Of a stretch of DNA of 64,000 nt, positions 33,211-64,000 are shown in pieces. A program made the translations under genes and the position numbers. The stretch spans positions 641,142,001 to 641,206,000 of the forward strand of contig NC_091285.1 in assembly GCF_032444005.1 (NCBI RefSeq), written 5' to 3'. Under the pieces are notes generated by a model. That model searched no databases. It was not told the origin of the DNA and was given only the letters and a program-made list of their open reading frames with translations. Position 1 is the stretch's first letter. Every line of letters starts with the position of its first letter. The stretch comes from Ranitomeya imitator. Its lineage: Eukaryota.

Positions 33211-33359
33211 CTGATAAATCCTTATTTTTAGTATAGAAATGCTCAATAAGTAACCAATGGTGATATAGTATAATGGTAATAGCAGGTAAGGGATTGAAAA
33301 GCACCATAAATATTACACCAAATCTGCGTATACAGTTTTGCACACTAAAATACCTAAAG
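33211..33359 (-). mobile_element. Inverted copy of Penelope-like 3' terminal region (homologous to 44322-44475)
   Basis: The reverse complement aligns with 44322-44475, including a shared ATGGTGCTTTTCAATCCCTTACCTGCTATTACCATTA run. Confidence 0.75.
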
Positions 33360-39351: not shown

Positions 39352-39958
39352 GAGTATGTGTCCACGTTCAGGATTGCATCAGGATTTGGTCAGTATTTTA
39401 CATCAGTATTTGTAGCCAAAACCAGGAGTGGGTGATAAATACAGAAGTGGTGCATATGTTTCTATTATAGTTTTCCTCTAAGGCTATGTGTCCACTTTCA
39501 GGATGGCCGGCGGTATCGCCGGAGCGGCTTAGCCGCTCTGCGGTAAGCCCCGCCCCCTTTCTGGGACGCGATGATGCCGGATGTGTTCACAGCACACATC
39601 CGGCATCATCGCACCCCACCATAGCGCCCTGTGCTATATCTTGCGGCGACGCAGCGTCGCCGCAAGATATACGGACATGCTGCGATCTGAAAAGACGCGC
39701 AGCATGTCCGGAGTCGCAGGGCCACCGCGTGCGTGTTACCACGCATAGTGGAGACGGGATTTCATTAAATCCCCTCCACTATGCTGTAACATCTGGACGC
39801 TGCGTGTTTGACGTTGCGGCTCTATGCAGCGTCAGACACGCAGCGTTTCCTGCACGTGGAAACAGACCCTAATTGTTCCACTCCTGGTTTTGGCTTACAA
39901 ATACTGATGAAAAATCCTGACCAAATCCTGATGCAATCCTGAACGTGGACACATACTC
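39352..39958. mobile_element. PIF/Harbinger-type MITE (TTA TSD) containing a second Harbinger-type MITE at 39482-39869 (TAA TSD)
   Basis: Outer TIR GAGTATGTGTCCACGTTCAGGATTGCATCAGGATTTGGTCAG and its reverse complement, flanked by TTA. The inner element GGCTATGTGTCCAC...GTGGAAACAGACCC is flanked by TAA. Confidence 0.75.
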
Positions 39959-41543: not shown

Positions 41544-41589
<46 letters not shown>

Positions 41590-41949
41590 CTGTGAGGACC
41601 TTATGTGAAGCTTAGCAGTAAGGGACTACACCACTACAGCGCAAAGGAAAGCTTTTACTTTCCACCTGGATAAGGGGACTGTGGACTTGCCTCCGAACCG
41701 GCCGGACCCTGCCTGCCCTGTGATCTGGTGCCCTGGACTGTGGCTGCTGAAGTCTTCAGTAAACGAGGTAAAGAGACTGCAACCTTGTGTCCTCGTTCCT
41801 TACTGCACCTCTCACTATACCACCATTTACACACTGGGAGGCCCTGGGGATATATTTCACCTGTGGGAAGGTATACCATGTAGATGCCATAACATCACCC
41901 CAGCGGACCCCTTAAAGCAGCGTCAGTCACCCTGACCGAATACCACAGG

Positions 41950-41963
41950 TGGCATCACGAACA
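41950..41963 (+). promoter_or_regulatory. Primer-binding-site-like motif after the LTR (copies at 51610-51623 and 60784-60797)
   Basis: TGGC(A/G)TCACGAACA lies 2 nt after the LTR-terminal CA. It is recalled as complementary to a vertebrate tRNA-Ser(CGA) 3' end; not verified. Confidence 0.6.
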
Positions 41964-42104
41964 TAAACTTTATTCCCTTTAAAGACCGTTCCCTTTTACA
42001 TGGGCACCCAGGGCCACGGACCGGGTTGCAGCCACCGTGACATCCCCCTGTGAACACCGGTACCGAGTACCCCCAACCTGCGGGGAGACTCATCTTTTAG
42101 TTGT

Positions 42105-42430
42105 ACGGAGTGCAGCCGCGTGTGTATGAGGTGTATGGAGCGGAGCCGTGTGTGCAAGGTGTATGGAGCAGAGTCATGTGTGTGTATGAAGTGTACGAAG
42201 TGGAGCCGCATGTGTACGAGGTGTACGGAGCGTACGCTAGCTGTGTCGGATCAGAGCAGATATTGCTCCTCGCTCTGACACTGACTGGCAGAGGAAACAT
42301 GGAGAGGTCTTTATCAGTGGCATACCGGAGCTGCAGCGACGTGAGCAGTCAGCGGTGCGGCGCAGCTGGATGACATCATTCAGCGCCACGGGAGTGGAAG
42401 CTGCCGGCTGCTGTAAGGGAGTGCATTGCA

Positions 42431-42508
<78 letters not shown>

Positions 42509-43636
42509 AGTGATGGAGCAGACAATAATGGGGGTGTGAAGGCAATGATGCGGTGGGGTAACCATTTATGACCATTATACTGTACGCAGTATCATGTGGG
42601 GCCATAATATTGTACCCAGCATCATATGGCACCATTATACTGTACAAAGCATCATGTGAGGCAATTATACAGTATGCAGCATCATGTGGGCCCATTATAC
42701 TGCACGGAGCATCACATGGGGCCAGTATACTGCACGCAACATCATGTGGGCCATTATACTGTACGCAGCATTATGTGTGGCCATTATACAGTATGGTGCA
42801 TCATTTGTGGCCATTATACAGTATGGAGCACTGTGTGGCCATTATACAGTATGGAGCACTGTGTGGCCATTATACAGTATGGAGCACTGTGTGGCCATTA
42901 TACAGTATGGAGCATAATGTGTGGCCATTATACAATGGAGCATAATGTGTGGCCATTTTACAGTATGGAGCATCATGTGTGGCCATTATACAGTATGGAG
43001 CACTGTGTGGCCATTATACGGTATGGAGCACCATGTGGCCATTATACAGTATTGAGCATCATGTGTGGCCATTATACAGTATAGAGCATAATGTGTGGCC
43101 ATTATACAATGGAGCATCATGTGTGGCCATTATACAGTATGGAGCATCATGTGGGGCCATTATACAGAATAGAGCATAATGTGTGACCATTATACAATGG
43201 AGCATCATGTGTGGCCACCCATTATACAGTATGGAGCATCATGTGGGGCCATTATACAGTATGGAGCATCATGTGGGGCCATTATACAGTATGGAGCATC
43301 ATGTGTGGCCATTATACAGTATGGAGCATCATGTGTGGCCATTATACAGTATTGAGCATCATGTGTGGCCATTATACAGTATTGAGCATCATGTGTGGCC
43401 ATTATACAGTATGGAGCATCATGTGTAGCCACTATACAGTATTGAGCACTGTGTGGCCATTTTTTTTGTTTATAATTATTATTTATGAAACAGTGTGATC
43501 AGCAGTGCTAAATGGGTGTGGTAGGGGCTTGGAAATGGGTGTGACTAGTTGTAAAATGGGTGTGGTCAGAGGCGTGGCCTATAATTTGCCGCTGTGCGCG
43601 CCGCAAACTTCAATCCTTCAAAAGTTGGGAGATATG
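42105..43636 (+). repeat. Remainder of the minisatellite-bearing element: 30-mer remnant, (TG)n, 30-bp CCATTATACAGTATGGAGCATCATGTGTGG array (42570-43460), and an AAAGTTGGGAGATATG TIR-like end
   Basis: The tandem units are visible directly. The terminal motif resembles the end of CATACCTCCCAAC-type non-autonomous DNA elements; no matching left TIR was found. Confidence 0.7.
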
Positions 43637-43641
43637 CCATG

Positions 43642-44475
43642 CCTAAAGGTGTTCAGTCTTAGAGATATTCAGTCTTAAAAATATTACCGGCAAGAAACCA
43701 TAACTAAACTGTCTATTACCGTATGAGGCAGCGCATAGTGCCAGCACTAGAGGACCTGGTGTCTGTCTCGGTATTATGCCAACATAGGCAGTCGGATGGT
43801 GCGATGTCGGAGAGCTGTCCCGGGTGGTTACCTCAGTAAAAAAAAAAAAGTTCAACCTCGCTGTTAAGTATGGGGGGTCATATATACCATCAGATGCCCA
43901 TGCCACAAATTCTATGTGGGACGTACCAAACGTCCACTTAATGTGAGGACAAATGAACACATTAGAAATATAAAGAAAAAGTTCACAGGCCACCCCTTAT
44001 CCAAACATTTTGTAGAAAACCATGGGGGGTGGTACCAAACATGGTGGTTACTGGTCTTGAAATTGTACATCCAGATTGGAGAAAAGGCAATTTTATTAAA
44101 TCCATGTCTCGACACTAATTCCTAGAGGACTTAACAGTGAGGTTTTTTGTTTTTTACTGAATTAACATCACCTGACCTTCGGGTTAGATATTTAAGGGCT
44201 TTCATCCAGCAGGGGGACAATCCCTGAGGAAGGAAACCGTGTTTCTGAAATGCGTTGGTTTAATGGTCCTTCCTACGATACGGTAATATTTTTAAGACTA
44301 AATGTCTCTAAGACTGAACGCCTTTAGGTAATTTATTGTGCAAAATTGCATATGCAGATGTGGTGTAATATACATGGTGCTTTTCAATCCCTTACCTGCT
44401 ATTACCATTACACTATATCACCATTGGTTACCATACTTACTGGGCATTTATTTACTAAAAATAAGGATTTATCAG
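43642..44475 (+). mobile_element. Penelope-like element remnant: inverted terminal piece, GIY-YIG endonuclease fragment, terminal repeat with hammerhead motif
   Basis: 43874-44026 encodes GVIYTIRCPCHKFYVGRTKRPLNVRTNEHIRNIKK..HPLSKHF. Segment 43642-43689 is an inverted copy of 44281-44328. Confidence 0.85.
44219..44260 (+). ncRNA. Minimal type-I hammerhead-like motif of the Penelope terminal repeat
   Basis: AATCC-CTGAGGA-A-GGAAAC-CGT-GTTTCT-GAAA-TGCG-TT-GGTTT. It has a CUGANGA core, a 6-bp stem II, GAAA and a weak stem I. The canonical GAAAC is GAAAT here. Confidence 0.55.
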
Positions 44476-44727
44476 TGCGAATACACTCTTTTATGATTTT
44501 TTTTCCACTTATCACATGATGCTAAACACGATTGATTAAAATCACATGTATTTGCAATAAGGAAAAAGTAAAACGAAAAGAAGACCAAAAAAAAAAAGCA
44601 ATAATATAACCAAATCCGGGGAAACTACAATTAGCACAATCACAGCAGACAGCGATCAAAACAAAAAAAAATAAAAACTTTTCTTGGGAAACAAAAAACA
44701 AACAAACAAATAATGTACATATTATGT

Positions 44728-45495
44728 ACATCACTGAGGTATATACATCACATGAGGCAGACACTGGGGTATATACGTCACATGAGGCAGACACTGGGGT
44801 ATATACGTCACATGAGACAGACACTGGGGTATATACATCACATGAGACAGACACTGGGGTATATACATCACATGAGACAGACACTGGGGTATATACATCA
44901 CATGAGACAGACACTGGGGTATATACATCACATGAGACAGACACTGGGGTATATACATCACATGAGACAGACACTGGGGTATATACATCACATGAGACAG
45001 ACACTGGGGTATATACATCACATGAGACAGACACTGGGGTATATACATCACATGAGGCAGACACTGGGGTATATACATCACATGAGGCAGACACTGGGGT
45101 ATATACATCACATGAGACAGACACTGGGGTATATACATCACATGAGACAGACACTGGGGTATATACATCACATGAGACAGACGCTGGGGTATATACATCA
45201 CATGAGACAGACACTGGGGTATATACATCACATGAGGCAGACACTGGGGTATATACATCACATGAGACAGACACTGGGGTATATACATCACATGAGACAG
45301 ACACTGGGGTATATACATCACATGAGACAGACACTGGGGTATATACATCACATGAGACAGACGCTGGGGTATATACATCACATGAGACAGACACTGGGGT
45401 ATATACATCACATGAGACAGACGCTGGGGTATATACATCACATGAGACAGACGCTGGGGTATATACATCACATGAGACAGACGCTGGGGTATATA
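44728..45495 (+). repeat. 30-bp minisatellite ATATACATCACATGAGACAGACACTGGGGT (further arrays at 49160-50135 and 57415-59309)
   Basis: Homogeneous tandem units; the source of the MRQTLGYIHH / VYTSHETDTG ORFs. Confidence 0.97.
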
Positions 45496-47147
45496 CAGTT
45501 AGGGCCAGAAATATTTGGACAGTGACACAAGTTTTGTTATTTTAGCTGTTTACAAAAACATGTTCAGAAATACAATTATATATATAATATGGGCTGAAAG
45601 TGCACACTCCCAGCTGCAATATGATAGTTTCCACATCCAAATCGGAGAAAGGGTTTAGGAATCATAGCTCTGTAATGCATAGCGTCCTCTTTTTCAAGGG
45701 ACCAAAAGTAATTGGACAATGGACTCTAAGGGCTGCAATTAACTCTGAAGGCGTCTCCCTCGTTAACCTGTAATCAATGAAGTAGTTAAAAGGTCAGGGG
45801 TGGATTCCAGGTGTGTGGTTTTGCATTTGGAAGCTGTTGCTGTGAGCAGACAACATGCGGTCAAAGGAACTCTCAATTGAGGTGAAGCAGAACATCCTGA
45901 GGCTGAAAAAAAAGAAAAAATCCATCAGAGAGATAGCAGACATGCTTGGAGTAGCAGAATCAACAGTTGGGTACATTCTGAGAAAAAAGGAATTGACTGG
46001 TGAGCTTGGGAACTCAAAAAGGCCTGGGCGTCCACGGATGACAACACTGGTGGATGATCGCCGCATACTTAATTTGGTGAAGAAGAACCCGTTCACAACA
46101 TCAACTGAAGTCCAGAACACTCTCAGTGAAGTAGGTGTATCTGTCTCTAAGTCAACAGTAAAGAGAAGACTCCATGACAGTAAATACAAAGGGTTCACAT
46201 CTAGATGCAAACCATTCATCAATACCAAAAATAGACAGGCCAGAGTTAAATTTGCAGAAAAACACCTCAAGAAGCCAGCTCAGTTCTGGAAAAGTATTCT
46301 ATGGACAGATGAGACAAAGATCAACCTGTACCAGAATGATGGGAAGAAAAAAGTTTGGAGAAGAAAGGGAACGGCACATGATCCAAGGCACACCACATCC
46401 TCTGTAAAACATGGTGGAGGCAACGTGATGGCATGGGCATGCATGGCTTTCAATGGCACTGGGTCACTTGTGTTTATTGATGACATAAGAGCAGACAAGA
46501 GTAGCCGGATGAATTCTGAAGTGTACCGGGATATACTTTCAGCCCAGATTCAGCCAAATGCTGCAAAGTTGATTGGACGGCGCTTCATAGTACAGATGGA
46601 CAATGACCCCAAGCATACAGCCAAAGCTACCCAGGAGTTCATGAGAGCCAAAAAGTGGAACATTCTGCAATGGCCAAGTCAATCTCCAGATCTAAACCCA
46701 ATTGAGCATGCATTTCACTTGCTCAAATCCAGACTTAAGACGGAAAGACCCACAAACAAGCAAGACCTGAAGGCTGCGGCTGTAAAGGTCTGGCAAAGCA
46801 TTAAGAAGGAGGAAACCCAGCGTTTGGTGATGTCCATGGGTTCCAGACTTAAGGCAGTGATTGCCTCCAAAGGATTTGCAACAAAATATTGAAAATAAAA
46901 ATATTTTGTTTGGGTTATGTTTATTTGTCCAATTACTTTTGACCTCCTAAAATGTGGAGTGTTTGTAAAGAAATGTGTACAATTCCTACATTTTCTATCA
47001 GATATTTTTGTTCAACCCTTCAAATTAAACGTTACAATCTGCACTTGAATTCTGTTGTAGAGGTTTCATTTCAAATCCAATGTGGTGGCATGCAGAGCCC
47101 AACTCGTGAAAATTGTGTCACTGTCCAAATATTTCTGGCCCTAACTG
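45496..47147 (+). mobile_element. Full-length Tc1 (DD34E, IR/DR-like) transposon, copy A
   Basis: TA-CAGTTAGGGCCAGAAATATTTGGACAGTGACACAA ... TTGTGTCACTGTCCAAATATTTCTGGCCCTAACTG-TA. A second inner 17-bp inverted pair lies at 45703-45719 / 46925-46941. Confidence 0.97.
45855..46892 (+). CDS. Tc1 transposase, intact 345 aa
   Basis: HTH and GRPR linker, WTDETK, MDNDPKH, WPSQSPDLNPIE. D-to-E spacing counted as 34. Confidence 0.95.
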   Translation: MRSKELSIEVKQNILRLKKKKKSIREIADMLGVAESTVGYILRKKELTGELGNSKRPGRPRMTTLVDDRRILNLVKKNPFTTSTEVQNTLSEVGVSVSKSTVKRRLHDSKYKGFTSRCKPFINTKNRQARVKFAEKHLKKPAQFWKSILWTDETKINLYQNDGKKKVWRRKGTAHDPRHTTSSVKHGGGNVMAWACMAFNGTGSLVFIDDIRADKSSRMNSEVYRDILSAQIQPNAAKLIGRRFIVQMDNDPKHTAKATQEFMRAKKWNILQWPSQSPDLNPIEHAFHLLKSRLKTERPTNKQDLKAAAVKVWQSIKKEETQRLVMSMGSRLKAVIASKGFATKY

Positions 47148-48636
47148 TACATCACAGGAGACAGACACTGGGGTATATACATCACATGAGACAGACACTG
47201 GGGTATATACATCACTGGGGCTGACACTGGGGTATATAAATCACTGGGGCAGATACTGGGGTATATACATCACTGGGGCAGACACTGGGGTATATACATC
47301 ACATGAGGCAGACACTGGGGTATATAAATCACTGGGGCAGACACTGGGGTATATACATCACTGGGGCAGACACTGGGGTATATACATCACTGGGGCAGAC
47401 ACTGGGGTATATACATCACTGGGGCAGACACTGGGGTATATACATCACTGACACTGGGGTATATACATCACATGAGACAGACACTGAGGTATATAAATCA
47501 CTGGGGCAGACACTGGGCTTTATATACATCACTGGGGCAGACACTGGGGTATATACATCACTGCGGCTGACACTGGGGTATATACATCACTGGGGCTGAC
47601 ACTGGGGTATATACATCACTGGGGCTGACACTGGAGTATATACATCACTGGGGCTGACACTGGGGTATATACATCACTGGGGCTGACACTGGGGTATATA
47701 CATCACTGGGGCTGACACTGGGGTATATACATCACTGGGGCTGACACTGGAGTATATACATCACTGGGGCTGACACTGGGGTATATACATCACTGGGGCT
47801 GACACTGGAGTATATACATCACTGGGGCTGACACTGGGGTATATACATCACTGGGGCTGACACTGGAGTATATACATCACTGGGGCTGACACTGGAGTAT
47901 ATACATCACTGGGGCTGACACTGGAGTATATACATCACTGGGGCTGACACTGGAGTATATACATCACTGGGGCTGACACTGGAGTATATACATCACTGGG
48001 GCTGACACTGGAGTATATACATCACTGGGGCTGACACTGGAGTATATACATCACTGGGGCTGACACTGGGGTATATACATCACTGGGGCTGACACTGGAG
48101 TATATACATCACTGGGGCTGACACTGGGGTATATACATCACTGGGGCTGACACTGGGGTATATACATCACTGGGGCTGACACTGGAGTATATACATCACT
48201 GGGGCTGACACTGGAGTATATACATCACTGGGGCTGACACTGGGGTATATACATCACTGGGGCTGACACTGGGGTATATACATCACTGGGGCTGACACTG
48301 GGGTATATACATCACTGACACTGGGGTATATACATCACTGGGGCTGACACTGGGGTATATACATCACTGGGGCTGACACTGGGGTATATACATCACTGAC
48401 ACTGGGGTATATACATCACTGACACTGGGGTATATACATCACTGGGGCTGACACTGGGGTATATACATCACTGGGGCTGACACTGGGGTATATACATCAC
48501 TGGGGCTGACACTGGGGTATATACATCACTGGGGCTGACACTGGGGTATATACATCACTGGGGCTGACACTGGGGTATATACTTCACTGGGGCTGACACT
48601 GGGGTATATACAACACTGGGGCTGACACTGGGGTAT
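47148..48636 (+). repeat. 29-bp minisatellite ATATACATCACTGGGGCTGACACTGGRGT with 23-bp variants (second array at 55053-56885)
   Basis: Tandem units sharing both ends with the 30-mer family. Confidence 0.95.
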
Positions 48637-48669
48637 GTATTGTATACAGTACAAAAAGGAAAAAAAATA

Positions 48670-48865
48670 ACCAGCTCACCTGCGGCGTGTACAAGTGCGG
48701 AACCCGTGTAGTCTCACATGTGGTGATCAAAAAATAGGTTAATCCAGCTTCTTATAAAATTAAATTTTATTTATCAAAAATTAAAAAGGAAGATGATGAC
48801 AGACAAGATGTAACATAACAAGTGGCTACGAGTTTCGAATACAAAGTGTCCTTTCCCAAGCTACA
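48670..48865 (-). mobile_element. Probable Penelope-type terminal fragment with degenerate hammerhead-like motif (copy at ~56920-57115)
   Basis: Minus strand CTTGGGAAAGG...TTCGAAACTCGTAG and a terminal CAG|GTGAG, similar in layout to the fragment at 5176-5370. Confidence 0.4.
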
Positions 48866-50135
48866 CATACTAAAACCTTCATGGAATTTATACCATGATT
48901 AACCAATTAGAAGGTATTCACTCATCACATGATGCTAAACACGATTGATTAAAATCACATGCATTTATAATAAGGAAAAAGAAAAAAGAAACCCAAAATC
49001 CCAGCAATAATATAACCAAATCCCAGAAAACTACAATTGGCATAATTACAGCAGACAGCATTCAAAACCCCCAAAAAGTAAAAAAAAAATTTGAGAAACA
49101 AACAATTTTTTTTTACATATTTATGTACATCACTGGGGCTGACACTGTGGTATATATATATATCACATGAGACAGACACTGGGGTATATACATCACATGA
49201 GGCAGACACTGGGGTATATACATCACATGAGACAGACACTGGGGTATATACATCACATGAGACAGACACTGGGGTATATACATCACATGAGACAGACACT
49301 GGGGTATATACATCACATGAGGCAGACACTGGGGTATATACATCACATGAGACAGACACTGGGGTATATACATCACATGAGACAGACACTGGGGTACATA
49401 CATCACATGAGACAGACACTGGGGTATATACATCACATGAGACAGACACTGGGGTATATACATCACATGAGGCAGACACTGGGGTATATACATCACATGA
49501 GACAGACACTGGGGTATATACATCACATGAGACAGACACTGGGGTATATACATCACATGAGACAGACACTGGGGTATATACATCACATGAGGCAGACACT
49601 GGGGTATATACATCACATGAGGCAGACACTGGGGTATATACATCACATGAGACAGACACTGGGGTATATACATCACATGAGACAGACACTGGGGTATATA
49701 CATCACATGAGACAGACACTGGGGTATATACATCACATGAGACAGACACTGGAGTATATACATCACATGAGACAGACACTGGAGTATATACATCACATGA
49801 GACAGACACTGGGGTATATACATCACATGAGACAGATACTGGGGTATATACATCACATGAGGCAGACACTGGGGTATATACATCACATGAGACAGACACT
49901 GGGGTATATACATCACATAAGAGACACTGGGGTATATACATCACATAAGACAGACACTGGGGTATATACATCACATGAGACAGACACTGGGGTATATACA
50001 TCATATGAGACAGACACTGGAGTATATACATCACATGAGACAGACACTGGGGTATATACATCACATGAGACAGATACTGGGGTATATACATCACATGAGA
50101 CAGACACTGGGGTACATACATCACATGAGACAGAC

Positions 50136-52090
50136 AAACTTACACAGCATCAATAGTAAAACGATCTAATGTTACAAATAATAATTAAAAAAAAGGTTAT
50201 TCTCACCCTCCGACGTCACCTGTTGTCCTCGGCAGTGCAAGCGGCAGGTTCCAGTGCCCAGGATGCTATGCGAGAAGGACCTGCCATGACATCACGATCA
50301 TGTGACCGCGACGTCATCACAGGTCCTGCGCTCATACCAACCCTGGGACCGGAAGCTGCCGCGTGCACCGCACACAAGCGCCAGGACTTCAAGGGGTCTT
50401 CGGAAGGTGAGTATATATTTATTTTTTGTTTTAAGTCTTTTTTAACCACGCATATAGTGCCCACATTGCTATATACTACGTGGGCTGTGTTACATACTGC
50501 GTGGGCTCTGTTATATACTACATCTATGTGCTATATACGATGTAGCTGGGCAATATACAACGTGACTGTCCAATATACTACGTAGCTGTGCAATATACTA
50601 TGTGGCTGTGTCGGTTCTGTTATATACTACATCGACTGTGCAATATACTACGTGGCTGTGCAATATACTATGATATACGACGTGGCTATGTTATATACTA
50701 CATGGCTCTGCTACATACTATGTGGCTGACCAATATACTACGTACCTGTGCAAAACACTACGTGGCTATGTTATATACTACGTGGCTGTGTTATATACTA
50801 CGTAGCTCTGCTATATACTATGTACGCTGTGTTACATTCTACGTCGGTTGTGTTCTATACTACTGTGCAATATAGCATGTAGCCTGTGCTATATACTACC
50901 TACATATTCTAGAATACCAGATACGTTAGAATCGGGCCACGTTCTAGTATATACAGTATATAACTGGTAGTCTGTAGGGAAAGTTAGAAAGTTCCAGACA
51001 TCCGTCTGAGGAGGACAGAGGGTTTACAGAGCTGTGCATGCCCTCAGAGCTGCAGCTCCCAGAAAGACATTTTAGAAAGCAGAATTGATTGCAGCGAGCG
51101 TGCGAGAGATTAAGCACAGGAGAGGATACCAGCAGGGGACCAGCCCCAAGCAGGCTGCCTCCTTCTGAGGCGCAGAACACCGGTAGCCGGTATACCGAGG
51201 TTGTAAGGACCTCCACAGAGAGAGAGAGAGAGAGAGAATCTGTGAGGACCTCTGAGGACCTTATGTGAAGCTTAGCAGTAAGGGACTACACCACTACAGC
51301 GCAAAGGAAAGCTTTTACTTTCCACCTGGATAAGGGGACTGTGGACTTGCCTCCGAACCGGCCAGACCCTGCCTGCCCTGTGATCTGGTGCCCTGGACTG
51401 TGGCTGCTGAAGTCTTCAGTAAACGAGGTAAAGAGACTGCAACCTTGTGTCCTCGTTCCTTACTGCACCTCTCACTATACCACCATTTACACACTGGGAG
51501 GCCCTGGGGATATATTTCACCTGTGGGAAGGTATACCATGTAGATGCCATAACATCACCCCAGCGGACCCCTTAAAGCAGCGTCAGTCACCCTGACCGAA
51601 TACCACAGGTGGCGTCACGAACATAAACTTTATTCCCTTTAAAGACCGTTCCCTTTTACATGGGCACCCAGGGCCACGGACCGGGTTGCAGCCACCGTGA
51701 CATCCCCCTGTGAACACCGGTACCGAGTACCCCCAACCTGCGGGGAGACTCATCTTTGAGTTGTACGGAGTGCAGCCGCGTGTGTATGAGGTGTATGGAG
51801 CGGAGCCGTGTGTGCAAGGTGTATGGAGCAGAGTCATGTGTGTGTATGAAGTGTACGAAGCGGAGCCGCATGTGTACGAGGTGTACGGAGCGTACGCTAG
51901 CTGTGTCGGATCAGAGCAGATATTGCTCCTCGCTCTGACACTGACTGGCAGAGGAAACATGGAGAGGTCTTTATCAGTGGCATACCGGAGCTGCAGCGAC
52001 GTGAGCAGTCAGCGGTGCGGCGCAGCTGGATGACATCATTCAGCGCCACGGGAGTGGAAGCTGCCGGCTGCTGTAAGGGAGTGCATTGCA

Positions 52091-52178
<88 letters not shown>

Positions 52179-53370
52179 ATAGTGATGGAGCAGACAATAA
52201 TGGGGGTGTGAAGGCAATGATGGGGTGGGGTAACCATGTATGACCATTATACTGTACGCAGTATCATGTGGGGCCATAATATTGTACCCAGCATCATATG
52301 GCACCATTATACTATACAAAGCATCATGTGAGGCAATTATACAGTATGCAGCATCATGTGGGCCCATTATACTGCACGGAGCATCACATGGGGCCAGTAT
52401 ACTGCACGCAACATCATGTGGGCCATTATACTGTACGCAGCATTATGTGTGGCCATTATACAGTATGGTGCATCATTTGTGGCCATTATACAGTATGGAG
52501 CACTGTGTGGCCATTATACAGTATGGAGCACTGTGTGGCCATTATACAGTATGGAGCACTGTGTGGCCATTATACAGTATGGAGCATAATGTGTGGCCAT
52601 TATACAATGGAGCATAATGTGTGGCCATTTTACAGTATGGAGCATCATGTGTGGCCATTATACAGTATGGAGCACTGTGTGGCCATTATACGGTATGGAG
52701 CACCATGTGGCCATTATACAGTATTGAGCATCATGTGTGGCCATTATACAGTATAGAGCATAATGTGTGGCCATTATACAATGGAGCATCATGTGTGGCC
52801 ATTATACAGTATGGAGCATCATGTGGGGCCATTATACAGAATAGAGCATAATGTGTGGCCATTATACAATGGAGCATCATGTGTGGCCACCCATTATACA
52901 GTATGGAGCATCATGTGGGGCCATTATACAGTATGGAGCATCATGTGGGGCCATTATACAGTATGGAGCATCATGTGTAGCCATTATACAGTATGGAGCA
53001 TCATGAGTGGCCATTATACAGTATGGAGCATCATGTGTGGCCATTATACAGTATGGAGCATCATGTGTGGCCATTATACAGTATGGAGCATCATGTGTGG
53101 CCATTATACAGTATGGAGCATCATGTGTGGCCATTATACAGTATGGAGCATCATGTGTGGCCATTATACAGTATGGAGCATCATGTGGGGCCATTATACA
53201 GTATGGAGCATCATGTGGGGCCATTATACAGTATGGAGCATCATGTGTAGCCATTATACAGTATGGAGCATCATGTGTGGCCATTATACAGTATGGAGCA
53301 TAATGTGTGGCCATTATACAGTATTGAGCATCATGTGTGGCCATTATACAGTATGGAGCATGCTCCATAC
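50136..53370 (+). repeat. Duplicated block B: Helitron 3' part (no hAT), LTR 3' part with PBS, minisatellites
   Basis: Near-identical to 35990-36308 plus 40765-43400. Helitron CTAG at 50944-50947 and LTR end at 51607. Confidence 0.95.
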
Positions 53371-53399
53371 ATCACATGAGACAGACGCTGGGGTATATA

Positions 53400-55052
53400 C
53401 AGTTAGGGCCAGAAATATTTGGACAGTGACACAAGTTTTGTTATTTTAGCTGTTTACAAAAACATGTTCAGAAATACAATTATATATATAATATGGGCTG
53501 AAAGTGCACACTCCCAGCTGCAATATGATAGTTTCCACATCCAAATCGGAGAAAGGGTTTAGGAATCATAGCTTTGTAATGCATAGCGTCCTCTTTTTCA
53601 AGGGACCAAAAGTAATTGGACAATGGACTCTAAGGGCTGCAATTAACTCTGAAGGCGTCTCCCTCGTTAACCTGTAATCAATGAAGTAGTTAAAAGGTCA
53701 GGGGTGGATTCCAGGTGTGTGGTTTTGCATTTGGAAGCTGTTGCTGTGAGCAGACAACATGCGGTCAAAGGAACTCTCAATTGAGGTGAAGCAGAACATC
53801 CTGAGGCTGAAAAAAAAGAAAAAATCCATCAGAGAGATAGCAGACATGCTTGGAGTAGCAAAATCAACAGTTGGGTACATTCTGAGAAAAAAGGAATTGA
53901 CTGGTGAGCTTGGGAACTCAAAAAGGCCTGGGCGTCCACGGATGACAACAGTGGTGGATGATCGCCGCATACTTAATTTGGTGAAGAAGAACCCGTTCAC
54001 AACATCAACTGAAGTCCAGAACACTCTCAGTGAAGTAGGTGTATCTGTCTCTAAGTCAACAGTAAAGAGAAGACTCCATGACAGTAAATACAAAGGGTTC
54101 ACATCTAGATGCAAACCATTCATCAATACCAAAAATAGACAGGCCAGAGTTAAATTTGCAGAAAAACACCTCAAGAAGCCAGCTCAGTTCTGGAAAAGTA
54201 TTCTATGGACAGATGAGACAAAGATCAACCTGTACCAGAATGATGGGAAGAAAAAAAGTTTGGAGAAGAAAGGGAACCGCACATGATCCAAGGCACACCA
54301 CATCCTCTGTAAAACATGGTGGAGGCAACGTGATGGCATGGGCATGCATGGCTTTCAATGGCACTGGGTCACTTGTGTTTATTGATGACATAAGAGCAGA
54401 CAAGAGTAGCCGGATGAATTCTGAAGTGTACCGGGATATACTTTCAGCCCAGATTCAGCCAAATGCTGCAAAGTTGATTGGACGGCGCTTCATAGTACAG
54501 ATGGACAATGACCCCAAGCATACAGCCAAAGCTACCCAGGAGTTCATGAGTGCCAAAAAGTGGAACATTCTGCAATGGCCAAGTCAATCTCCAGATCTAA
54601 ACCCAATTGAGCATGCATTTCACTTGCTCAAATCCAGACTTAAGATGGAAAGACCCACAAACAAGCAAGACCTGAAGGCTGCGGCTGTAAAGGCCTGGCA
54701 AAGCATTAAGAAGGAGGAAACCCAGCGTTTGGTGATGTCCATGGGTTCCAGACTTAAGGCAGTGATTGCCTCCAAAGGATTTGCAACAAAATATTGAAAA
54801 TAAAAATATTTTGTTTGGGTTATGTTTATTTGTCCAATTACTTTTGACCTCCTAAAATGTGGAGTGTTTGTAAAGAAATGTGTACAATTCCTACATTTTC
54901 TATCAGATATTTTTGTTCAACCCTTCAAATTAAACGTTACAATCTGCACTTGAATTCTGTTGTAGAGGTTTCATTTCAAATCCAATGTGGTGGCATGCAG
55001 AGCCCAACTCGCGAAAATTGTGTCACTGTCCAAATATTTCTGGCCCTAACTG
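53400..55052 (+). mobile_element. Tc1 copy B, full length, transposase frameshifted by one extra A at ~54250
   Basis: Same TIRs and TA flanks as copy A. ORF split into 53759-54286 and 54078-54797 at GGGAAGAAAAAAAG. Confidence 0.95.
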
Positions 55053-58000
55053 TACATCACATGAGACAGACACTGGGGTATATACATCACATGAGACAGA
55101 CACTGGGGTATATACATCACATGAGACAGACACTGGGGTATATACATCACTGGGGCTGACACTGGGGTATATAAATCACTGGGGCAGATACTGGGGTATA
55201 TACATCACTGGGGCAGACACTGGGGTATATACATCACATGAGGCAGACACTGGGGTATATAAATCACTGGGGCAGACACTGGGGTATATAAATCACTGGG
55301 GCAGACACTGGGGTATATACATCACTGGGGCAGACACTGGGGTATATACATCACTGGGGCTGACACTGGGGTATATACATCACTGACACTGGGGTATATA
55401 CATCACATGAGACAGACACTGAGGTATATAAATCACTGGGGCAGACACTGGGCTTTATATACATCACTGGGGCAGACACTGGGGTATATACATCACTGGG
55501 GCTGATACTGGGGTATATACATCACTGGGGCTGACACTGGGGTATATACATCACTGGGGCTGACACTGGGGTATATACATCACTGGGGCTGACACTGGGG
55601 TTTATATACATCACTGGGGCAGACACTGGGGTATATACATCACTGGGGCTGACACTGGGGTATATACATCACTGGGGCTGACACTGGGGTATATACATCA
55701 CTGGGGCTGACACTGGAGTATATACATCACTGGGGCTGACACTGGAGTATATACATCACTGGGGCTGACACTGGGGTATATACATCACTGGGGCTGACAC
55801 TGGGGTATATACATCACTGGGGCTGACACTGGGGTATATACATCACTGGGGCTGACACTGGAGTATATACATCACTGGGGCTGACACTGGGGTATATACA
55901 TCACTGGGGCTGACACTGGGGTATATACATCACTGGGGCTGACACTGGAATATATACATCACTGGGGCTGACACTGGAGTATATACATCACTGGGGCTGA
56001 CACTGGAGTATATACATCACTGGGGCTGACACTGGAGTATATACATCACTGGGGCTGACACTGGAGTATATACATCACTGGGGCTGACACTGGAGTATAT
56101 ACATCACTGGGGCTGACACTGGAGTATATACATCACTGGGGCTGACACTGGAGTATATACATCACTGGGGCTGACACTGGAGTATATACATCACTGGGGC
56201 TGACACTGGGGTATATACATCACTGGGGCTGACACTGGAGTATATACATCACTGGGGCTGACACTGGGGTATATACATCACTGGGGCTGACACTGGAGTA
56301 TATACATCACTGACACTGGGGTATATACATCACTGGGGCTGACACTGGGGTATATACATCACTGGGGCTGACACTGGGGTATATACATCACTGACACTGG
56401 GGTATATACATCACTGGGGCTGACACTGGGGTATATACATCACTGGGGCAGACACTGGGGTATATACATCACTGGGGCTGACACTGGGGTATATACATCA
56501 CTGGGGCTGACACTGGGGTATATACATCACTGACACTGGGGTATATACATCACTGACACTGGGGTATATACATCACTGACACTGGGGTATATACATCACT
56601 GACACTGGGGTATATACATCACTGACACTGGGGTATATACATCACTGGGGCTGACACTGGGGTATATACATCACTGGGGCTGACACTGGGGTATATACAT
56701 CACTGGGGCTGACACTGGGGTATATACATCACTGGGGCTGACACTGGGGTATATACTTCACTGGGGCTGACACTGGGGTATATACATCACTGGGGCTGAC
56801 ACTGGGGTATATACATCACTGGGGCTGACACTGGGGTATATACATCACTGGGGCTGACACTGGGGTATATACATCACTGGGGTATGTATTGTATACAGTA
56901 CAAAAAGGAAAAAAAATAACCAGCTCACCTGCGGCGTGTACAAGTGCGGAACCCGTGTAGTCTCACATGTGGTGATCAAAAAATAGGTGTTAATCCAGCT
57001 TCTTATAAAATTAAATTTTATTTATCAAAAATTAAAAAGGAAGATGATGACAGACAAGATGTAACATAACAAGTGGCTACGAGTTTCGAATACAAAGTGT
57101 CCTTTCCCAAGCTACACATACTAAAACCTTAATGGAATTTATACCATGATTAACCAATTAGAAGGTATTCACTCATCACATGATGCTAAACACGATTGAT
57201 TAAAATCACATGCATTTATAATAAGGAAAAAGAAAAAAGAAACCCAAAATCCCAGCAATAATATAACCAAATCCCAGAAAACTACAATTGGCATAATTAC
57301 AGCAGACAGCATTCAAAACCCCCAAAAAGTAAAAAAAAAATTTGAGAAACAAACAATTTTTTTTTACATATTTATGTACATCACTGGGGCTGACACTGTG
57401 GTATATATATATATCACATGAGACAGACACTGGGGTATATACATCACATGAGGCAGACACTGGGGTATATACATCACATGAGACAGACACTGGGGTACAT
57501 ACATCACATGAGACAGACACTGGGGTACATACATCACATGAGAGAGACAATGGGGTATATACATCACATGAGACAGACACTGGGGTATATACATCACATG
57601 AGGCAGACACTGGGGTATATACATCACATGAGACAGACACTGGGGTATATACATCACATAAGAGACACTGGGGTATATACATCACATAAGACAGACACTG
57701 GGGTATATACATCACATGAGAGAGACAATGGGGTACATACATCACATGAGAGAGACAATGGGGTATATACATCACATGAGACAGACAATGGGGTATATAC
57801 ATCACATGAGACAGACACTGGGGTATATACATCACATGAGGCAGACACTGAGGTACATACATCACATGAGACAGACACTGGGGTATATACATCACATGAG
57901 ACAGACACTGGGGTATATACATCACATGAGACAGACACTGGGGTATATACATCACATGAGACAGACACTGGGGTATATACATCACATGAGGCAGACACTG

Positions 58001-59309
58001 GGGTATATACATCACATGAGACAGACACTGGGGTATATACATCACATGAGACAGACACTGGGGTATATACATCACATGAGACAGACACTGGGGTATATAC
58101 ATCACATAAGAGACACTGGGGTATATACATCACATAAGACAGACACTGGGGTATATACATCACATGAGACAGACACTGGGGTATATACATCACATGAGAC
58201 AGACACTGGGGTATATACATCACATGAGACAGACACTGGGGTACATACATCACATGAGACAGACACTGGGGTATATACATCACATGAGACAGACACTGGG
58301 GTATATACATCACATAAGAGACACTGGGGTATATACATCACATAAGACAGACACTGGGGTATATACATCACATGAGACAGACACTGGGGTATATACATCA
58401 CATGAGACAGACACTGGGGTATATACATCACATGAGGCAGACACTGGGGTATATACATCACATGAGGCAGACACTGGGGTATATACATCACATGAGGCAG
58501 ACACTGGGGTATATACATCACATGAGACAGACACTGAGGTATATACATCACATGAGACAGACACTGGGGTATATACATCACATGAGGCAGACACTGGGGT
58601 ATATACATCACATGAGACAGACACTGAGGTATATACATCACATGAGACAGACACTGGGGTATATACATCACATGAGGCAGACACTGGAGTATATACATCA
58701 CATGAGGCAGACACTGGGGTATATACATCACATGAGGCAGACACTGGGGTATATACATCACATGAGGCAGACACTGGGGTATATACATCACATGAGGCAG
58801 ACACTGGGGTATATACATCACATGAGGCAGACACTGGGGTATATACATCACATGAGGCAGACACTGAGGTATATACATCACATGAGACAGACATTGGGAT
58901 ATATACATCACATGAGACAGACACTGGGGTATATACATCACTGGGGCAGACACTGAGGTATATACATCACATGAGACAGACACTGGGGTATATACATCAC
59001 ATGAGACAGACACTGGGGTATATACATCACATGAAGCAGACACTGAGGTATATACATCACATGAGACAGACACTGGGGTATATACATCACATAAGAGACA
59101 CTGGGGTATATACATCACATAAGACAGACACTGGGGTATATACATCACATGAGACAGACACTGGGGTATATACATCACATGAGACAGACACTGGAGTATA
59201 TACATCACATGAGACAGACACTGGGGTATATACATCACATGAGACAGATACTGGGGTATATACATCACATGAGACAGACACTGGGGTACATACATCACAT
59301 GAGACAGAC

Positions 59310-61264
59310 AAACTTACACAGCATCAATAGTAAAACGATCTAATGTTACAAATAATAATTAAAAAAAAGGTTATTCTCACCCTCCGACGTCACCTGTTGT
59401 CCTCGGCAGTGCAAGCGGCAGGTTCCAGTGCCCAGGATGCTATGCGAGAAGGACCTGCCATGACATCACGATCATGTGACCGCGACGTCATCACAGGTCC
59501 TGCGCTCATACCAACCCTGGGACCGGAAGCTGCCGCGTGCACCGCACACAAGCGCCAGGACTTCAAGGGGTCTTCGGAAGGTGAGTATATATTTATTTTT
59601 TGTTTTAAGTCTTTTTTAACCACGCATATAGTGCCCACATTGCTATATACTACGTGGGCTGTGTTACATACTGCGTGGGCTCTGTTATATACTACATCTA
59701 TGTGCTATATACGATGTAGCTGGGCAATATACAACGTGACTGTCCAATATACTACGTAGCTGTGCAATATACTATGTGGCTGTGTCGGTTCTGTTATATA
59801 CTACATCGACTGTGCAATATACTACGTGGCTGTGCAATATACTATGATATACGACGTGGCTATGTTATATACTACATGGCTCTGCTACATACTATGTGGC
59901 TGACCAATATACTACGTACCTGTGCAAAACACTACGTGGCTATGTTATATACTACGTGGCTGTGTTATATACTACGTAGCTCTGCTATATACTATGTACG
60001 CTGTGTTACATTCTACGTCGGTTGTGTTCTATACTACTGTGCAATATAGCATGTAGCCTGTGCTATATACTACCTACATATTCTAGAATACCAGATACGT
60101 TAGAATCGGGCCACGTTCTAGTATATACAGTATATAACTGGTAGTCTGTAGGGAAAGTTAGAAAGTTCCAGACATCCGTCTGAGGAGGACAGAGGGTTTA
60201 CAGAGCTGTGCATGCCCTCAGAGCTGCAGCTCCCAGAAAGACATTTTAGAAAGCAGAATTGATTGCAGCGAGCGTGCGAGAGATTAAGCACAGGAGAGGA
60301 TACCAGCAGGGGACCAGCCCCAAGCAGGCTGCCTCCTTCTGAGGCGCAGAACACCGGTAGCCGGTATACCGAGGTTGTAAGGACCTCCACAGAGAGAGAG
60401 AGAGAGAGAGAATCTGTGAGGACCTCTGAGGACCTTATGTGAAGCTTAGCAGTAAGGGACTACACCACTACAGCGCAAAGGAAAGCTTTTACTTTCCACC
60501 TGGATAAGGGGACTGTGGACTTGCCTCCGAACCGGCCAGACCCTGCCTGCCCTGTGATCTGGTGCCCTGGACTGTGGCTGCTGAAGTCTTCAGTAAACGA
60601 GGTAAAGAGACTGCAACCTTGTGTCCTCGTTCCTTACTGCACCTCTCACTATACCACCATTTACACACTGGGAGGCCCTGGGGATATATTTCACCTGTGG
60701 GAAGGTATACCATGTAGATGCCATAACATCACCCCAGCGGACCCCTTAAAGCAGCGTCAGTCACCCTGACCGAATACCACAGGTGGCGTCACGAACATAA
60801 ACTTTATTCCCTTTAAAGACCGTTCCCTTTTACATGGGCACCCAGGGCCACGGACCGGGTTGCAGCCACCGTGACATCCCCCTGTGAACACCGGTACCGA
60901 GTACCCCCAACCTGCGGGGAGACTCATCTTTGAGTTGTACGGAGTGCAGCCGCGTGTGTATGAGGTGTATGGAGCGGAGCCGTGTGTGCAAGGTGTATGG
61001 AGCAGAGTCATGTGTGTGTATGAAGTGTACGAAGCGGAGCCGCATGTGTACGAGGTGTACGGAGCGTACGCTAGCTGTGTCGGATCAGAGCAGATATTGC
61101 TCCTCGCTCTGACACTGACTGGCAGAGGAAACATGGAGAGGTCTTTATCAGTGGCATACCGGAGCTGCAGCGACGTGAGCAGTCAGCGGTGCGGCGCAGC
61201 TGGATGACATCATTCAGCGCCACGGGAGTGGAAGCTGCCGGCTGCTGTAAGGGAGTGCATTGCA

Positions 61265-61354
<90 letters not shown>

Positions 61355-62546
61355 ATAGTGATGGAGCAGACAATAATGGGGGTGTGAAGGCAATGATGGG
61401 GTGGGGTAACCATGTATGACCATTATACTGTACGCAGTATCATGTGGGGCCATAATATTGTACCCAGCATCATATGGCACCATTATACTATACAAAGCAT
61501 CATGTGAGGCAATTATACAGTATGCAGCATCATGTGGGCCCATTATACTGCACGGAGCATCACATGGGGCCAGTATACTGCACGCAACATCATGTGGGCC
61601 ATTATACTGTACGCAGCATTATGTGTGGCCATTATACAGTATGGTGCATCATTTGTGGCCATTATACAGTATGGAGCACTGTGTGGCCATTATACAGTAT
61701 GGAGCACTGTGTGGCCATTATACAGTATGGAGCACTGTGTGGCCATTATACAGTATGGAGCATAATGTGTGGCCATTATACAATGGAGCATAATGTGTGG
61801 CCATTTTACAGTATGGAGCATCATGTGTGGCCATTATACAGTATGGAGCACTGTGTGGCCATTATACGGTATGGAGCACCATGTGGCCATTATACAGTAT
61901 TGAGCATCATGTGTGGCCATTATACAGTATAGAGCATAATGTGTGGCCATTATACAATGGAGCATCATGTGTGGCCATTATACAGTATGGAGCATCATGT
62001 GGGGCCATTATACAGAATAGAGCATAATGTGTGGCCATTATACAATGGAGCATCATGTGTGGCCACCCATTATACAGTATGGAGCATCATGTGGGGCCAT
62101 TATACAGTATGGAGCATCATGTGGGGCCATTATACAGTATGGAGCATCATGTGTAGCCATTATACAGTATGGAGCATCATGAGTGGCCATTATACAGTAT
62201 GGAGCATCATGTGTGGCCATTATACAGTATGGAGCATCATGTGTGGCCATTATACAGTATGGAGCATCATGTGTGGCCATTATACAGTATGGAGCATCAT
62301 GTGTGGCCATTATACAGTATGGAGCATCATGTGTGGCCATTATACAGTATGGAGCATCATGTGGGGCCATTATACAGTATGGAGCATCATGTGGGGCCAT
62401 TATACAGTATGGAGCATCATGTGTAGCCATTATACAGTATGGAGCATCATGTGTGGCCATTATACAGTATGGAGCATAATGTGTGGCCATTATACAGTAT
62501 TGAGCATCATGTGTGGCCATTATACAGTATGGAGCATGCTCCATAC
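59310..62546 (+). repeat. Duplicated block C (near-identical to block B, offset ~9175 bp)
   Basis: Identical ORF translations offset by 9174-9176 bp; only microsatellite details differ. Confidence 0.95.
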
Positions 62547-62575
62547 ATCACATGAGACAGACGCTGGGGTATATA

Positions 62576-64000
62576 CAGTTAGGGCCAGAAATATTTGGAC
62601 AGTGACACAAGTTTTGTTATTTTAGCTGTTTACAAAAACATGTTCAGAAATACAATCATATATATAATATGGGCTGAAAGTGCACACTCCCAGCTGCAAT
62701 ATGATAGTTTCCACATCCAAATCGGAGAAAGGGTTTAGGAATCATAGCTTTGTAATGCATAGCGTCCTCTTTTTCAAGGGACCAAAAGTAATTGGACAAT
62801 GGACTCTAAGGGCTGCAATTAACTCTGAAGGCGTCTCCCTCGTTAACCTGTAATCAATGAAGTAGTTAAAAGGTCAGGGGTGGATTCCAGGTGTGTGGTT
62901 TTGCATTTGGAAGCTGTTGCTGTGAGCAGACAACATGCGGTCAAAGGAACTCTCAATTGAGGTGAAGCAGAACATCCTGAGGCTGAAAAAAAAGAAAAAA
63001 TCCATCAGAGAGATAGCAGACATGCTTGGAGTAGCAAAATCAACAGTTGGGTACATTCTGAGAAAAAAGGAATTGACTGGTGAGCTTGGGAACTCAAAAA
63101 GGCCTGGGCGTCCACGGATGACAACAGTGGTGGATGATCGCCGCATACTTAATTTGGTGAAGAAGAACCCGTTCACAACATCAACTGAAGTCCAGAACAC
63201 TCTCAGTGAAGTAGGTGTATCTGTCTCTAAGTCAACAGTAAAGAGAAGACTCCATGACAGTAAATACAAAGGGTTCACATCTAGATGCAAACCATTCATC
63301 AATACCAAAAATAGACAGGCCAGAGTTAAATTTGCAGAAAAACACCTCAAGAAGCCAGCTCAGTTCTGGAAAAGTATTCTATGGACAGATGAGACAAAGA
63401 TCAACCTGTACCAGAATGATGGGAAGAAAAAAGTTTGGAGAAGAAAGGGAACCGCACATGATCCAAGGCACACCACATCCTCTGTAAAACATGGTGGAGG
63501 CAACGTGATGGCATGGGCATGCATGGCTTTCAATGGCACTGGGTCACTTGTGTTTATTGATGACATAAGAGCAGACAAGAGTAGCCGGATGAATTCTGAA
63601 GTGTACCGGGATATACTTTCAGCCCAGATTCAGCCAAATGCTGCAAAGTTGATTGGACGGCGCTTCATAGTACAGATGGACAATGACCCCAAGCATACAG
63701 CCAAAGCTACCCAGGAGTTCATGAGTGCCAAAAAGTGGAACATTCTGCAATGGCCAAGTCAATCTCCAGATCTAAACCCAATTGAGCATGCATTTCACTT
63801 GCTCAAATCCAGACTTAAGATGGAAAGACCCACAAACAAGCAAGACCTGAAGGCTGCGGCTGTAAAGGCCTGGCAAAGCATTAAGAAGGAGGAAACCCAG
63901 CGTTTGGTGATGTCCATGGGTTCCAGACTTAAGGCAGTGATTGCCTCCAAAGGATTTGCAACAAAATATTGAAAATAAAAATATTTTGTTTGGGTTATGT
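62576..64000 (+). mobile_element. Tc1 copy C (right end beyond the window)
   Basis: TA-CAGTTAGGGCC left TIR at 62576. Confidence 0.95.
62935..63972 (+). CDS. Tc1 transposase, intact 345 aa (B/C allele)
   Basis: Complete ORF with DD34E triad. Differs from copy A at five residues (E>K, L>V, R>S, T>M, V>A). Confidence 0.95.
   Translation: MRSKELSIEVKQNILRLKKKKKSIREIADMLGVAKSTVGYILRKKELTGELGNSKRPGRPRMTTVVDDRRILNLVKKNPFTTSTEVQNTLSEVGVSVSKSTVKRRLHDSKYKGFTSRCKPFINTKNRQARVKFAEKHLKKPAQFWKSILWTDETKINLYQNDGKKKVWRRKGTAHDPRHTTSSVKHGGGNVMAWACMAFNGTGSLVFIDDIRADKSSRMNSEVYRDILSAQIQPNAAKLIGRRFIVQMDNDPKHTAKATQEFMSAKKWNILQWPSQSPDLNPIEHAFHLLKSRLKMERPTNKQDLKAAAVKAWQSIKKEETQRLVMSMGSRLKAVIASKGFATKY

Follow-up and report, generated by a model that had tools for sequence, protein, structure and literature searches.

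The 64,000-nt window of the Ranitomeya imitator genome analyzed here probably holds three head-to-tail copies of a locally duplicated, repeat-rich segment about 9 kb long, with a Tc1 transposon carried along as a passenger. The locus is likely an ordinary copy-number variant rather than a transposase-boosting system, and the triplication is most likely neutral and functionless. The copy number is read from one assembly (GCF_032444005.1). In particular, the three Tc1 copies (A, B and C) follow each other with periods of 7904 and 9176 nt, and two junctions, J1 and J2, each recur identically, twice (Table 1). An earlier sequence-only reading had reported the same start positions, the same order of modules within the unit, and common left and right flanks with two recurring junctions, all of which are confirmed. 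The second and third units share exact matches of 2130 and 1337 bp, far above chance; one unit is complete from junction to junction, with a length of 9174 bp. Genome-wide matches of the unit's parts show that the copies adjoin their source and are not dispersed.

Table 1. Positions of the features that make up the locus, numbered from the first nucleotide of the window.
Feature	Position	Strand	Remarks
Source block H0 (nested: Helitron-like 3′ part, LTR-like 3′ part, 30-mer arrays)	35991..43461	+	Sequence comparison
Helitron-like non-autonomous element	35706..41277	+	5′ TC, 3′ CTAG after short stem, between A and T
LTR-like repeat hosting the Helitron-like insertion	~35531-42093		Relatives compared
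hAT-like non-autonomous insertion, young, 4448 bp	36309..40756	+	13-bp TIR, 8-bp TSD
Segment Y, single copy	43462..44724	+	One match in 162 kb
Minisatellite array S1, 30-mer, 25 units	44725..45495	+	
Tc1 copy A, 1652 bp	45496..47147	+	Transposase ORF of 345 aa at 45855-46892; 35-bp TIRs, TA target duplication, DD34E
Array S2A, 29-mer, 51 units	47148..48636	+	
E piece copy A, old low-copy repeat	48637..49125	+	
Array S3A, 30-mer, 33 units	49126..50136	+	Ends at J1
Junction J1, first copy	50136..50137	+	Minisatellite joined to Helitron-like interior
H1, duplicate of H0	50137..53361	+	Without hAT-like insertion
Junction J2, first copy	53351..53370	n/a	Join at 53361; perfect 20-bp palindrome
Tc1 copy B, 1653 bp	53400..55052	+	Frameshift near 54251, 175 aa
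Array S2B, 29-mer, 64 units	55053..56885	+	
E piece copy B	56886..57376	+	Identical to copy C
Array S3B, 30-mer, 64 units	57377..59310	+	Chimeric array
Junction J1, second copy	59310..59311	+	
H2	59311..62537	+	Equal to H1 save one TG unit
Junction J2, second copy	62527..62546	n/a	Join at 62537
Tc1 copy C, last of the array	62576..64000, on to 64227 past the window	+	Intact 345-aa ORF

The earlier reading allowed that the array may continue beyond the window; the adjacent 98 kb show it ending after the third copy. This sequence holds the end of Tc1 copy C, a single 29-mer array, a single E piece and an 11-kb 30-mer array that ends at about position 77860 and gives way to non-repeated DNA, with no further units anywhere in the 98 kb. 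No N occurs in the 162 kb covered, and thus no assembly gap separates the copies. Altogether, about 20 kb of minisatellite can let the locus expand or collapse. Among 24 public sequencing runs listed, the best share of words was 0.55 and none was an RNA run; in the short contigs of four of these runs, from at most two samples, none of the pieces listed extended 31 nt to both sides of J1, J2 or the satellite-Tc1 join, a gap that proves nothing. One 42-nt contig overlaps positions 53334-53370 and is not assignable to this locus. No description of the locus was met in the literature, in searches that were not aimed at it.

The block between the Tc1 copies derives from H0, which lies upstream of the coordinates covered by the earlier reading; that reading correctly placed a Helitron/LTR block within the unit, and missed this third, source copy. 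H0, H1 and H2 share a private deletion that is absent from all nine relatives listed (12 loci examined). The hAT-like element occupies H0 only, and H1 and H2 carry the empty site; seven of seven relatives are 99.92-99.96% identical over 2557 bp. The surrounding element, which we take to be a Helitron, has high-copy relatives at 93-96% identity, and four of five relatives of the LTR-like repeat join its two halves directly, without the Helitron-like element. Comparing positions 32300-33400 with 43460-44800 yielded no TIR pair for the outer repeat, only a 155-bp inverted match. When 34 of 34 candidate matches to the E piece were scored, exactly three proved near-identical, each of them within this locus; the nearest relatives of the piece are 73-85% identical, as for an old, low-copy repeat. 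Rfam returned nothing at family threshold for positions 43400-53500, where two chance-level matches fell below the gathering score, and it offers no ribozyme support within that interval for the 'PLE' label that the E piece had been given.

The TIR of the Tc1 element consists of a 35-bp perfect outer match and a 17-bp inner match, and a TA target duplication flanks copies A and B as well as 53 of 55 dispersed copies. The transposase exceeds the curated cut-offs for PF01498, PF13358 and PF13565, combining HTH and DDE catalytic domains; its triad of D152, D249 and E284, with 34 residues between the second D and the E, is of the DD34E type, and the nearest solved structure is the Sleeping Beauty SB100X catalytic domain (5cr4, E 3e-54). 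The claim that a coding-competent Tc1 was amplified holds for copies A and C and fails for copy B as it stands in the assembly, where one extra base in an A run truncates the ORF; this frameshift is possibly a homopolymer sequencing error.

Copies A and B of Tc1 differ at 8 of 1652 positions (0.48%) and their non-array flanks at 9 of 2004 (0.45%), and both sit at the same point of a single array unit, which bears out the proposal that Tc1 was copied with its surroundings and not by transposition. Copies B and C are closer still: Tc1 shows one substitution, and none occurs across the 3225 positions of H or the 491 of E. Relative to the majority state of 34 other family copies, A has five private substitutions, B and C share three, and A and B/C have none in common; this absence counts against a single insertion, which would require the copies to have split soon after it. 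Best-match samples (55 copies) had suggested that A and B/C belong to different Tc1 sub-lineages. This was rejected as selection bias: in a sample not picked by similarity (the first 30 matches and nine chosen; 34 of 39 full length), the supposed sub-lineage alleles occur in 0-1 of 34 copies, and a gene-conversion account was dropped because the signal behind it was that same bias.

The two junctions are of different character. J1 has no exact microhomology at the join, and it cuts the Helitron-like element about 285 bp inside its 5′ end, leaving the 3′ CTAG internal to the unit. Inspection of S3C by eye did not reveal the variant pattern that flanks J1, which leaves the parent position of this junction imprecise. 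At J2, about 2 kb are deleted relative to the source, segment Y is lost from the second and third units, and the perfect palindrome constitutes an inverted templated insertion with a 4-bp microhomology to the minisatellite. The palindrome and microhomology fit templated-insertion end joining as outlined in PMC4183433, and J2 may thus have been formed by polymerase-theta-type end joining; hairpin opening may be an alternative origin of the palindrome. Direct transposase cleavage is an unlikely cause of J2, since 38 bp of satellite remain between the join and the TIR.

The 29/30-bp minisatellite is specific to this locus, where all 121 of the 121 exact genome-wide matches to a 41-nt satellite probe are found, and its variants carry a record of exchange. 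In particular, positions 58538-59060 of S3B match S3C exactly over 523 bp, and positions 59047-59310 match the end of S3A over 264 bp with one mismatch; the array changes from S3C-type to S3A-type within the 14 bp from 59047 to 59060, to which the exact homology at the crossover is limited. S3B would accordingly appear to be a recombinant array, created by crossover between paralogous units. The S2 arrays of B and C differ in their VNTR pattern.

These observations suggest an order of events. A single Tc1 insertion at a TA within the minisatellite, of which the TIRs and TA are seen, would have come first. The minisatellite would then have been joined, without homology, to a point within the upstream Helitron-like element, producing J1 and duplicating about 10 kb, with the J2 deletion and its insertion arising in the same event or later. 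The two units would next have diverged by about 0.45%, with the young hAT-like element probably entering the source block only at this stage; two diverged alleles would give the same picture. Finally, a recent out-of-register exchange between the long S3 of the second unit and the S3 of the first probably generated the middle unit. In the standard two-stage model, an initial amplification is likewise succeeded by unequal exchange (PMC5932611).

The Tc1 family has 6,938 exact matches genome-wide. An intact-length ORF was present in 13 of 30 sampled copies, which extrapolates to an estimated 3,000 intact ORFs, and the single intact ORF added here amounts to about 0.03% of that estimate. Among the 27 full-length copies in this sample of 30, pairs differ by 13.7 substitutions on average, a low divergence from which recent activity of the family may be inferred. 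Moreover, duplications resembling this one and carrying the same Tc1 occur elsewhere in the genome, which removes the case for an undescribed system. Two comparable 9-12 kb repeats with this family lie in the first 93 Mb of contig C1. The first 30 matches include one flank-sharing pair (L126/L127), and two of four close Tc1 clusters examined are flank-sharing duplicates with offsets of about 12 kb and 9.3 kb. Another pair (L150 and L151), spaced 1950 bp within a different minisatellite, represents separate insertions.

The same assembled sequence could arise from a true locus of two units if the middle unit were a false duplicate, created when a misjoin in S3 placed two haplotypes of the second unit end to end; such a misjoin and an unequal exchange give identical topology. 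Copies B and C are allele-like, with one substitution, one homopolymer indel and one TG indel in about 5.4 kb of non-array DNA, and their S2 differences suit this explanation. However, the switch in S3B has an overlap of just 14 bp exact, where assemblers use overlaps far above that length, and J1 and J2 are non-homologous joins, the latter with a templated insertion, so that at least two units are likely real. Heterotype false duplication is named as the chief source of such errors in PMC9516828, which also describes false duplicates as mostly gap-separated, whereas the present sequence is gap-free; a false middle unit is, on balance, unlikely. Amplification of the unit as a circle, either as eccDNA or by Helitron rolling circle, and reintegration of a concatemer is very unlikely. 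It would agree with head-to-tail units, identical junctions and a start inside the Helitron-like element, and rolling-circle replication is listed among three routes to tandem TEs in PMC5932611; in contrast, the unit's ends do not coincide with the termini of the Helitron-like element, genome-wide matches revealed no dispersed copy, the copies remain where their source lies, and the chimeric S3B suggests that the first unit took part in the exchange.

It is highly improbable that Tc1 A and Tc1 B/C were inserted independently, at corresponding TA sites in two arrays that are paralogs or alleles, with only B and C co-duplicated. Such insertions would equally leave A and B/C with no common private substitution, L150 and L151 offer a precedent, and every satellite unit has the same TATATA target, which makes identical short flanks uninformative; but A and B/C lie in the same orientation at one and the same variant boundary, inside one of 668 units, their Tc1 and flank divergences are equal, and zero common changes are expected with probability 0.35-0.62 if the split fell in the earliest 10-20% of the age of the copy. 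The proposal of a nascent, selected composite macrosatellite, expanding as a transposase reservoir or piRNA source and raising transposase dosage, is scarcely credible. The unit is multi-kilobase, its TIRs are intact and two of three copies keep the ORF, and Bari1 arrays, where homogeneous, have been proposed to give rise to piRNAs (PMC5932611); yet there are only three copies, the array ends, one extra copy is frameshifted and the other contributes a single intact ORF beside some 7,000 copies of the family, comparable duplications occur elsewhere, and all copies have the same orientation, so that no inverted template for transcripts arises from the repeat itself. A bolder extension of the local duplication is also quite unlikely: Tc1 may have set off the duplication at or just after its insertion, in keeping with the lack of a private change common to A and B/C, with an ongoing burst seeding many 9-12 kb tandem units genome-wide and transposase breaks driving their expansion. 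If so, the genome would present, as a natural series, macrosatellites that have so far reached two to three copies, each unit keeping intact TIRs and a minisatellite recording its crossovers, and an enrichment of duplications at Tc1 sites would link cut-and-paste bursts to tandem duplication and genome growth.

As a system, the locus carries little weight, and it is probably one of many small tandem duplications that this transposon-rich genome of 5.96 Gb contains. It has modest worth as an example, where the order of events can be followed from the variant code of the minisatellite together with a dated insertion and the scars left at two junctions, and where minisatellite variants can place an unequal crossover to 14 bp.

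Macrosatellites of the D4Z4/DXZ4 type have a multi-kilobase unit in many tandem copies, with a copy number that is polymorphic among individuals; the present locus matches their unit size and has one complete unit in place of many. TE-derived satellites of the Bari1/hobo/R1 type have direct TE-to-TE junctions with TSD or TIR deletion, absent here, and tens to hundreds of units, where three are assembled, which may represent a collapsed longer array. The Bari1 arrays of Drosophila melanogaster likewise contain head-to-tail Tc1-family copies with recurring junctions; in each of the 85 strains examined, 32-130 of their copies abut directly and the TIRs are incomplete (PMC5932611), whereas the three copies here have complete TIRs and are set apart by 6-7.5 kb of other DNA. 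The Mboumar mariner in Messor ant satellite DNA (PMC2581405) similarly places ORF-intact Tc1/mariner copies in a tandem-repeat array; there, several copies occupy a heterochromatic satellite and activity was found in vitro, whereas here the copies are co-duplicated within a single-locus minisatellite. The element itself resembles other vertebrate Tc1/DD34E transposons in its triad, HTH and DDE_3 domains, TA duplication, TIRs and length of about 1.65 kb, and differs in the composition of its TIR. J2 resembles POLQ templated-insertion end joining (PMC4183433) in its short insertion copied from the flank and its 4-bp microhomology, from which the enzyme is deduced. Overall, the locus is a further case of a known kind, tandem duplication, and no undescribed system. 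Like the two-stage duplications covered in PMC5932611, it combines a one-off tandem pair with later unequal exchange and an identical junction for each new unit; it differs from them in that its exchange point is readable to within 14 bp and its unit is a nest of unrelated TE pieces.

The three-copy Tc1 repeat is classified as a small tandem segmental duplication that was probably expanded once by unequal exchange, with the Tc1 transposon as a passenger; its anatomy and junctions, the divergences and the chimeric array, the size of the Tc1 family and the parallel cases were observed directly. The sequence-only reading had described a macro-repeat that might continue past the window. In the one assembly from which copy number was taken (5.96 Gb, 1672 contigs), the repeat is present with the positions and periods it gave. 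However, when 98 kb of downstream sequence was added, yielding 162 kb free of N bases, none of the unit's modules recurred between the end of array S3C and 162000, and the repeat therefore ends at three copies. The modules run in the order source block H0, single-copy segment Y, minisatellite array S1, Tc1 A, array S2A, low-copy piece E, array S3A, junction J1, H0 duplicate H1 and junction J2, followed by Tc1 B, S2B, E, S3B, J1, H2, J2, Tc1 C, S2C, E and S3C.

Coordinates of the repeat and related features (positions above 64000 continue the window numbering)
Feature	Position	Observation
Broken reverse-transcriptase-like ORF	398-2810 (+)	presumably LINE-like, by motif
Broken reverse-transcriptase-like ORF	22094-25615 (-)	presumably DIRS-like, by motif
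Inverted match, 155 bp	33210-33359 and 44322-44476	88%; flanks nested repeat cluster
H0	35991-43461	
hAT-like composite, 4.45 kb	36309-40756; also loci L099-L105	non-autonomous, very recent burst
Y end	44506-44725	79% identical to E end; same satellite after each
E end	48920-49125	
Tc1 A, B, C	starts 45496, 53400, 62576	periods 7904 and 9176
J1	50136/7, 59310/1	
J2	53361, 62537	
S3C	to about 77860	11 kb; beyond the window (L031-L032) two short non-satellite inserts, one ending in a retroposon-tail-like ATT run
Degenerate Tc1-family element	L032:5861 onward (C4 about 641219861)	second element, different family; starts exactly at satellite end; interrupted about 1.2 kb from its start by another sequence; TIR possibly of ZB/Tc1-8B type
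Tandem repeat, same Tc1 family	C1:77713818-77758972 (L165-L171)	multi-kb; also a 4-kb inverted segment, 99.2%
Tandem repeat, same Tc1 family	C1:90849476-90866818 (L172-L175)	multi-kb

Each Tc1 copy is 1652-1653 bp long with a 35-bp TIR, and its ORF contains the PF01498 and PF13358 domains and a DD34E triad, the nearest solved structure being the Sleeping Beauty catalytic domain. The proposed coding competence holds for A and C (345 aa each) but is lost in B, where a frameshift leaves 175 aa. Tc1 A differs from B at 8/1652 bases (0.48%), and outside the arrays the flanks of units one and two show 9/2004 differences (0.45%); in contrast, a single substitution and one base in a homopolymer separate Tc1 B from C, their E copies show 0/491 differences, and H1 and H2 differ by a single TG unit in 3225 bp. 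These divergences point to two splits, an older one between A and B/C and a very recent one between B and C. Further, when each of the 668 satellite units is assigned to a variant, S3B proves chimeric, beginning S3C-like and ending S3A-like: it matches S3C exactly across 523 bp and then S3A across 264 bp with one mismatch, the two matches overlapping by 14 bp. Unequal exchange pairing the long array of the last unit with the array of the first would give exactly this product.

The middle unit could instead be a false haplotype duplication, a known assembly error that, according to an excerpt of PMC9516828, usually leaves a gap between copies. Here there is no gap, the S3B switch has an exact overlap of only 14 bp, and J1 and J2 are non-homologous; a false middle unit is therefore improbable. 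As to the origin of the Tc1 copies, A and B/C have no private substitution in common (judged against the majority state in 34 other full-length copies), which counts against the simplest reading, and A and B/C may be independent insertions. Two such events, however, would have had to hit one and the same variant boundary, to within one unit of 668, and in matching orientation; an early split also explains the absence of common changes, which it would produce with a probability of 0.35-0.62. We infer a single Tc1 insertion before the duplication. Best-hit samples had at first suggested that A and B/C come from different sub-lineages; the alleles concerned occur in 0-1/34 copies, and the signal is therefore selection bias.

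J1 joins a 30-mer satellite to the interior of the Helitron-like element, about 285 bp from its end, and shows no exact microhomology where the two meet. At J2, a different 30-mer array abuts the single satellite unit preceding Tc1; about 2 kb including Y is deleted, and the junction carries a perfect 20-bp palindrome whose final four bases match the satellite. The palindrome and satellite match fit the templated extension and microhomology-mediated re-annealing attributed to POLQ in the part of PMC4183433 consulted, and J2 may have formed by such a pathway.

The duplicated unit is local to its locus. In particular, all 121 exact genome-wide matches of a 41-nt satellite probe lie there, as do the three near-identical E copies (34/34 candidates scored); beyond these, the closest relatives of E show 73-85% identity. 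Although the H pieces come from high-copy families, H0, H1 and H2 are 97-100% identical to each other versus 96% and 91% for the best other matches (two comparisons, 40 candidates scored each); they have in common a private deletion that none of the 9 relatives printed carries (12 loci examined). H0 is a nest in which a Helitron-like element interrupts an LTR-like repeat that is contiguous in 4/5 relatives, and this element in turn contains a hAT-like insertion of 4448 bp flanked by an 8-bp TSD; the class labels are presumed from terminal motifs. The insertion is very young, its relatives (7/7) being 99.92-99.96% identical, and H1 and H2 carry an empty site at its position. Of 40 candidates scored for the right part of the hAT-like composite (2.56 kb), 39 are other near-identical copies, spread over many contigs. 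Separately, the likeness of the Y and E ends suggests an older duplication of a satellite-bearing segment.

Genome-wide, a 37-nt internal Tc1 probe has 6,938 exact matches. The first 30, all on contig C1, include 27 full-length copies and 13 whose ORF reaches 340 aa or more, roughly extrapolating to about 3,000 intact ORFs. Against these numbers the triplication adds one intact ORF, and the suggested increase in transposase dosage is not supported; the triplication is probably neutral. Summed contig depth over the Tc1 left end (53400-53436) is about 1,000,000 in sequencing runs X1 and X2 versus 3,000-4,000 in X3 and X6, a hint, from depth and not copy number, of a lineage-specific burst. Copies of this Tc1 often lie within TA-rich minisatellite-like flanks (L150, L151, L132, L135, L146, L148 and L164; 40-bp flanks, by eye), L150 and L151 being distinct insertions into a single array, 1950 bp from each other. 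Moreover, the window locus is not alone in having this Tc1 duplicated together with its flanks: shared flanks also occur at L126 and L127, 234 kb apart, and in 2/4 close clusters fetched (chosen, not random), of which one is a three-copy repeat of roughly 12 kb (C1:77.71-77.76 Mb, 96-98%) and the other a 9.3-kb pair (C1:90.85-90.87 Mb, 98%). The remaining two clusters each have one member that is not full length, and the flank comparison covers the other two.

Overall, two-stage tandem duplication, satellite-embedded mariners and Tc1-family arrays are known already, and the locus is a further tandem segmental duplication. Tc1/mariner families of tens of thousands of copies are described for a poison frog in an excerpt of PMC6278860, and ORF-intact mariners within satellite DNA in passages of PMC2581405 (tabulated in the review PMC9659126). 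The locus lacks the defining features of true Tc1-family arrays of the Bari1 type, which reach 32-130 copies in the portion of PMC5932611 consulted, and matches the two-stage model outlined in that portion, amplification followed by unequal exchange.
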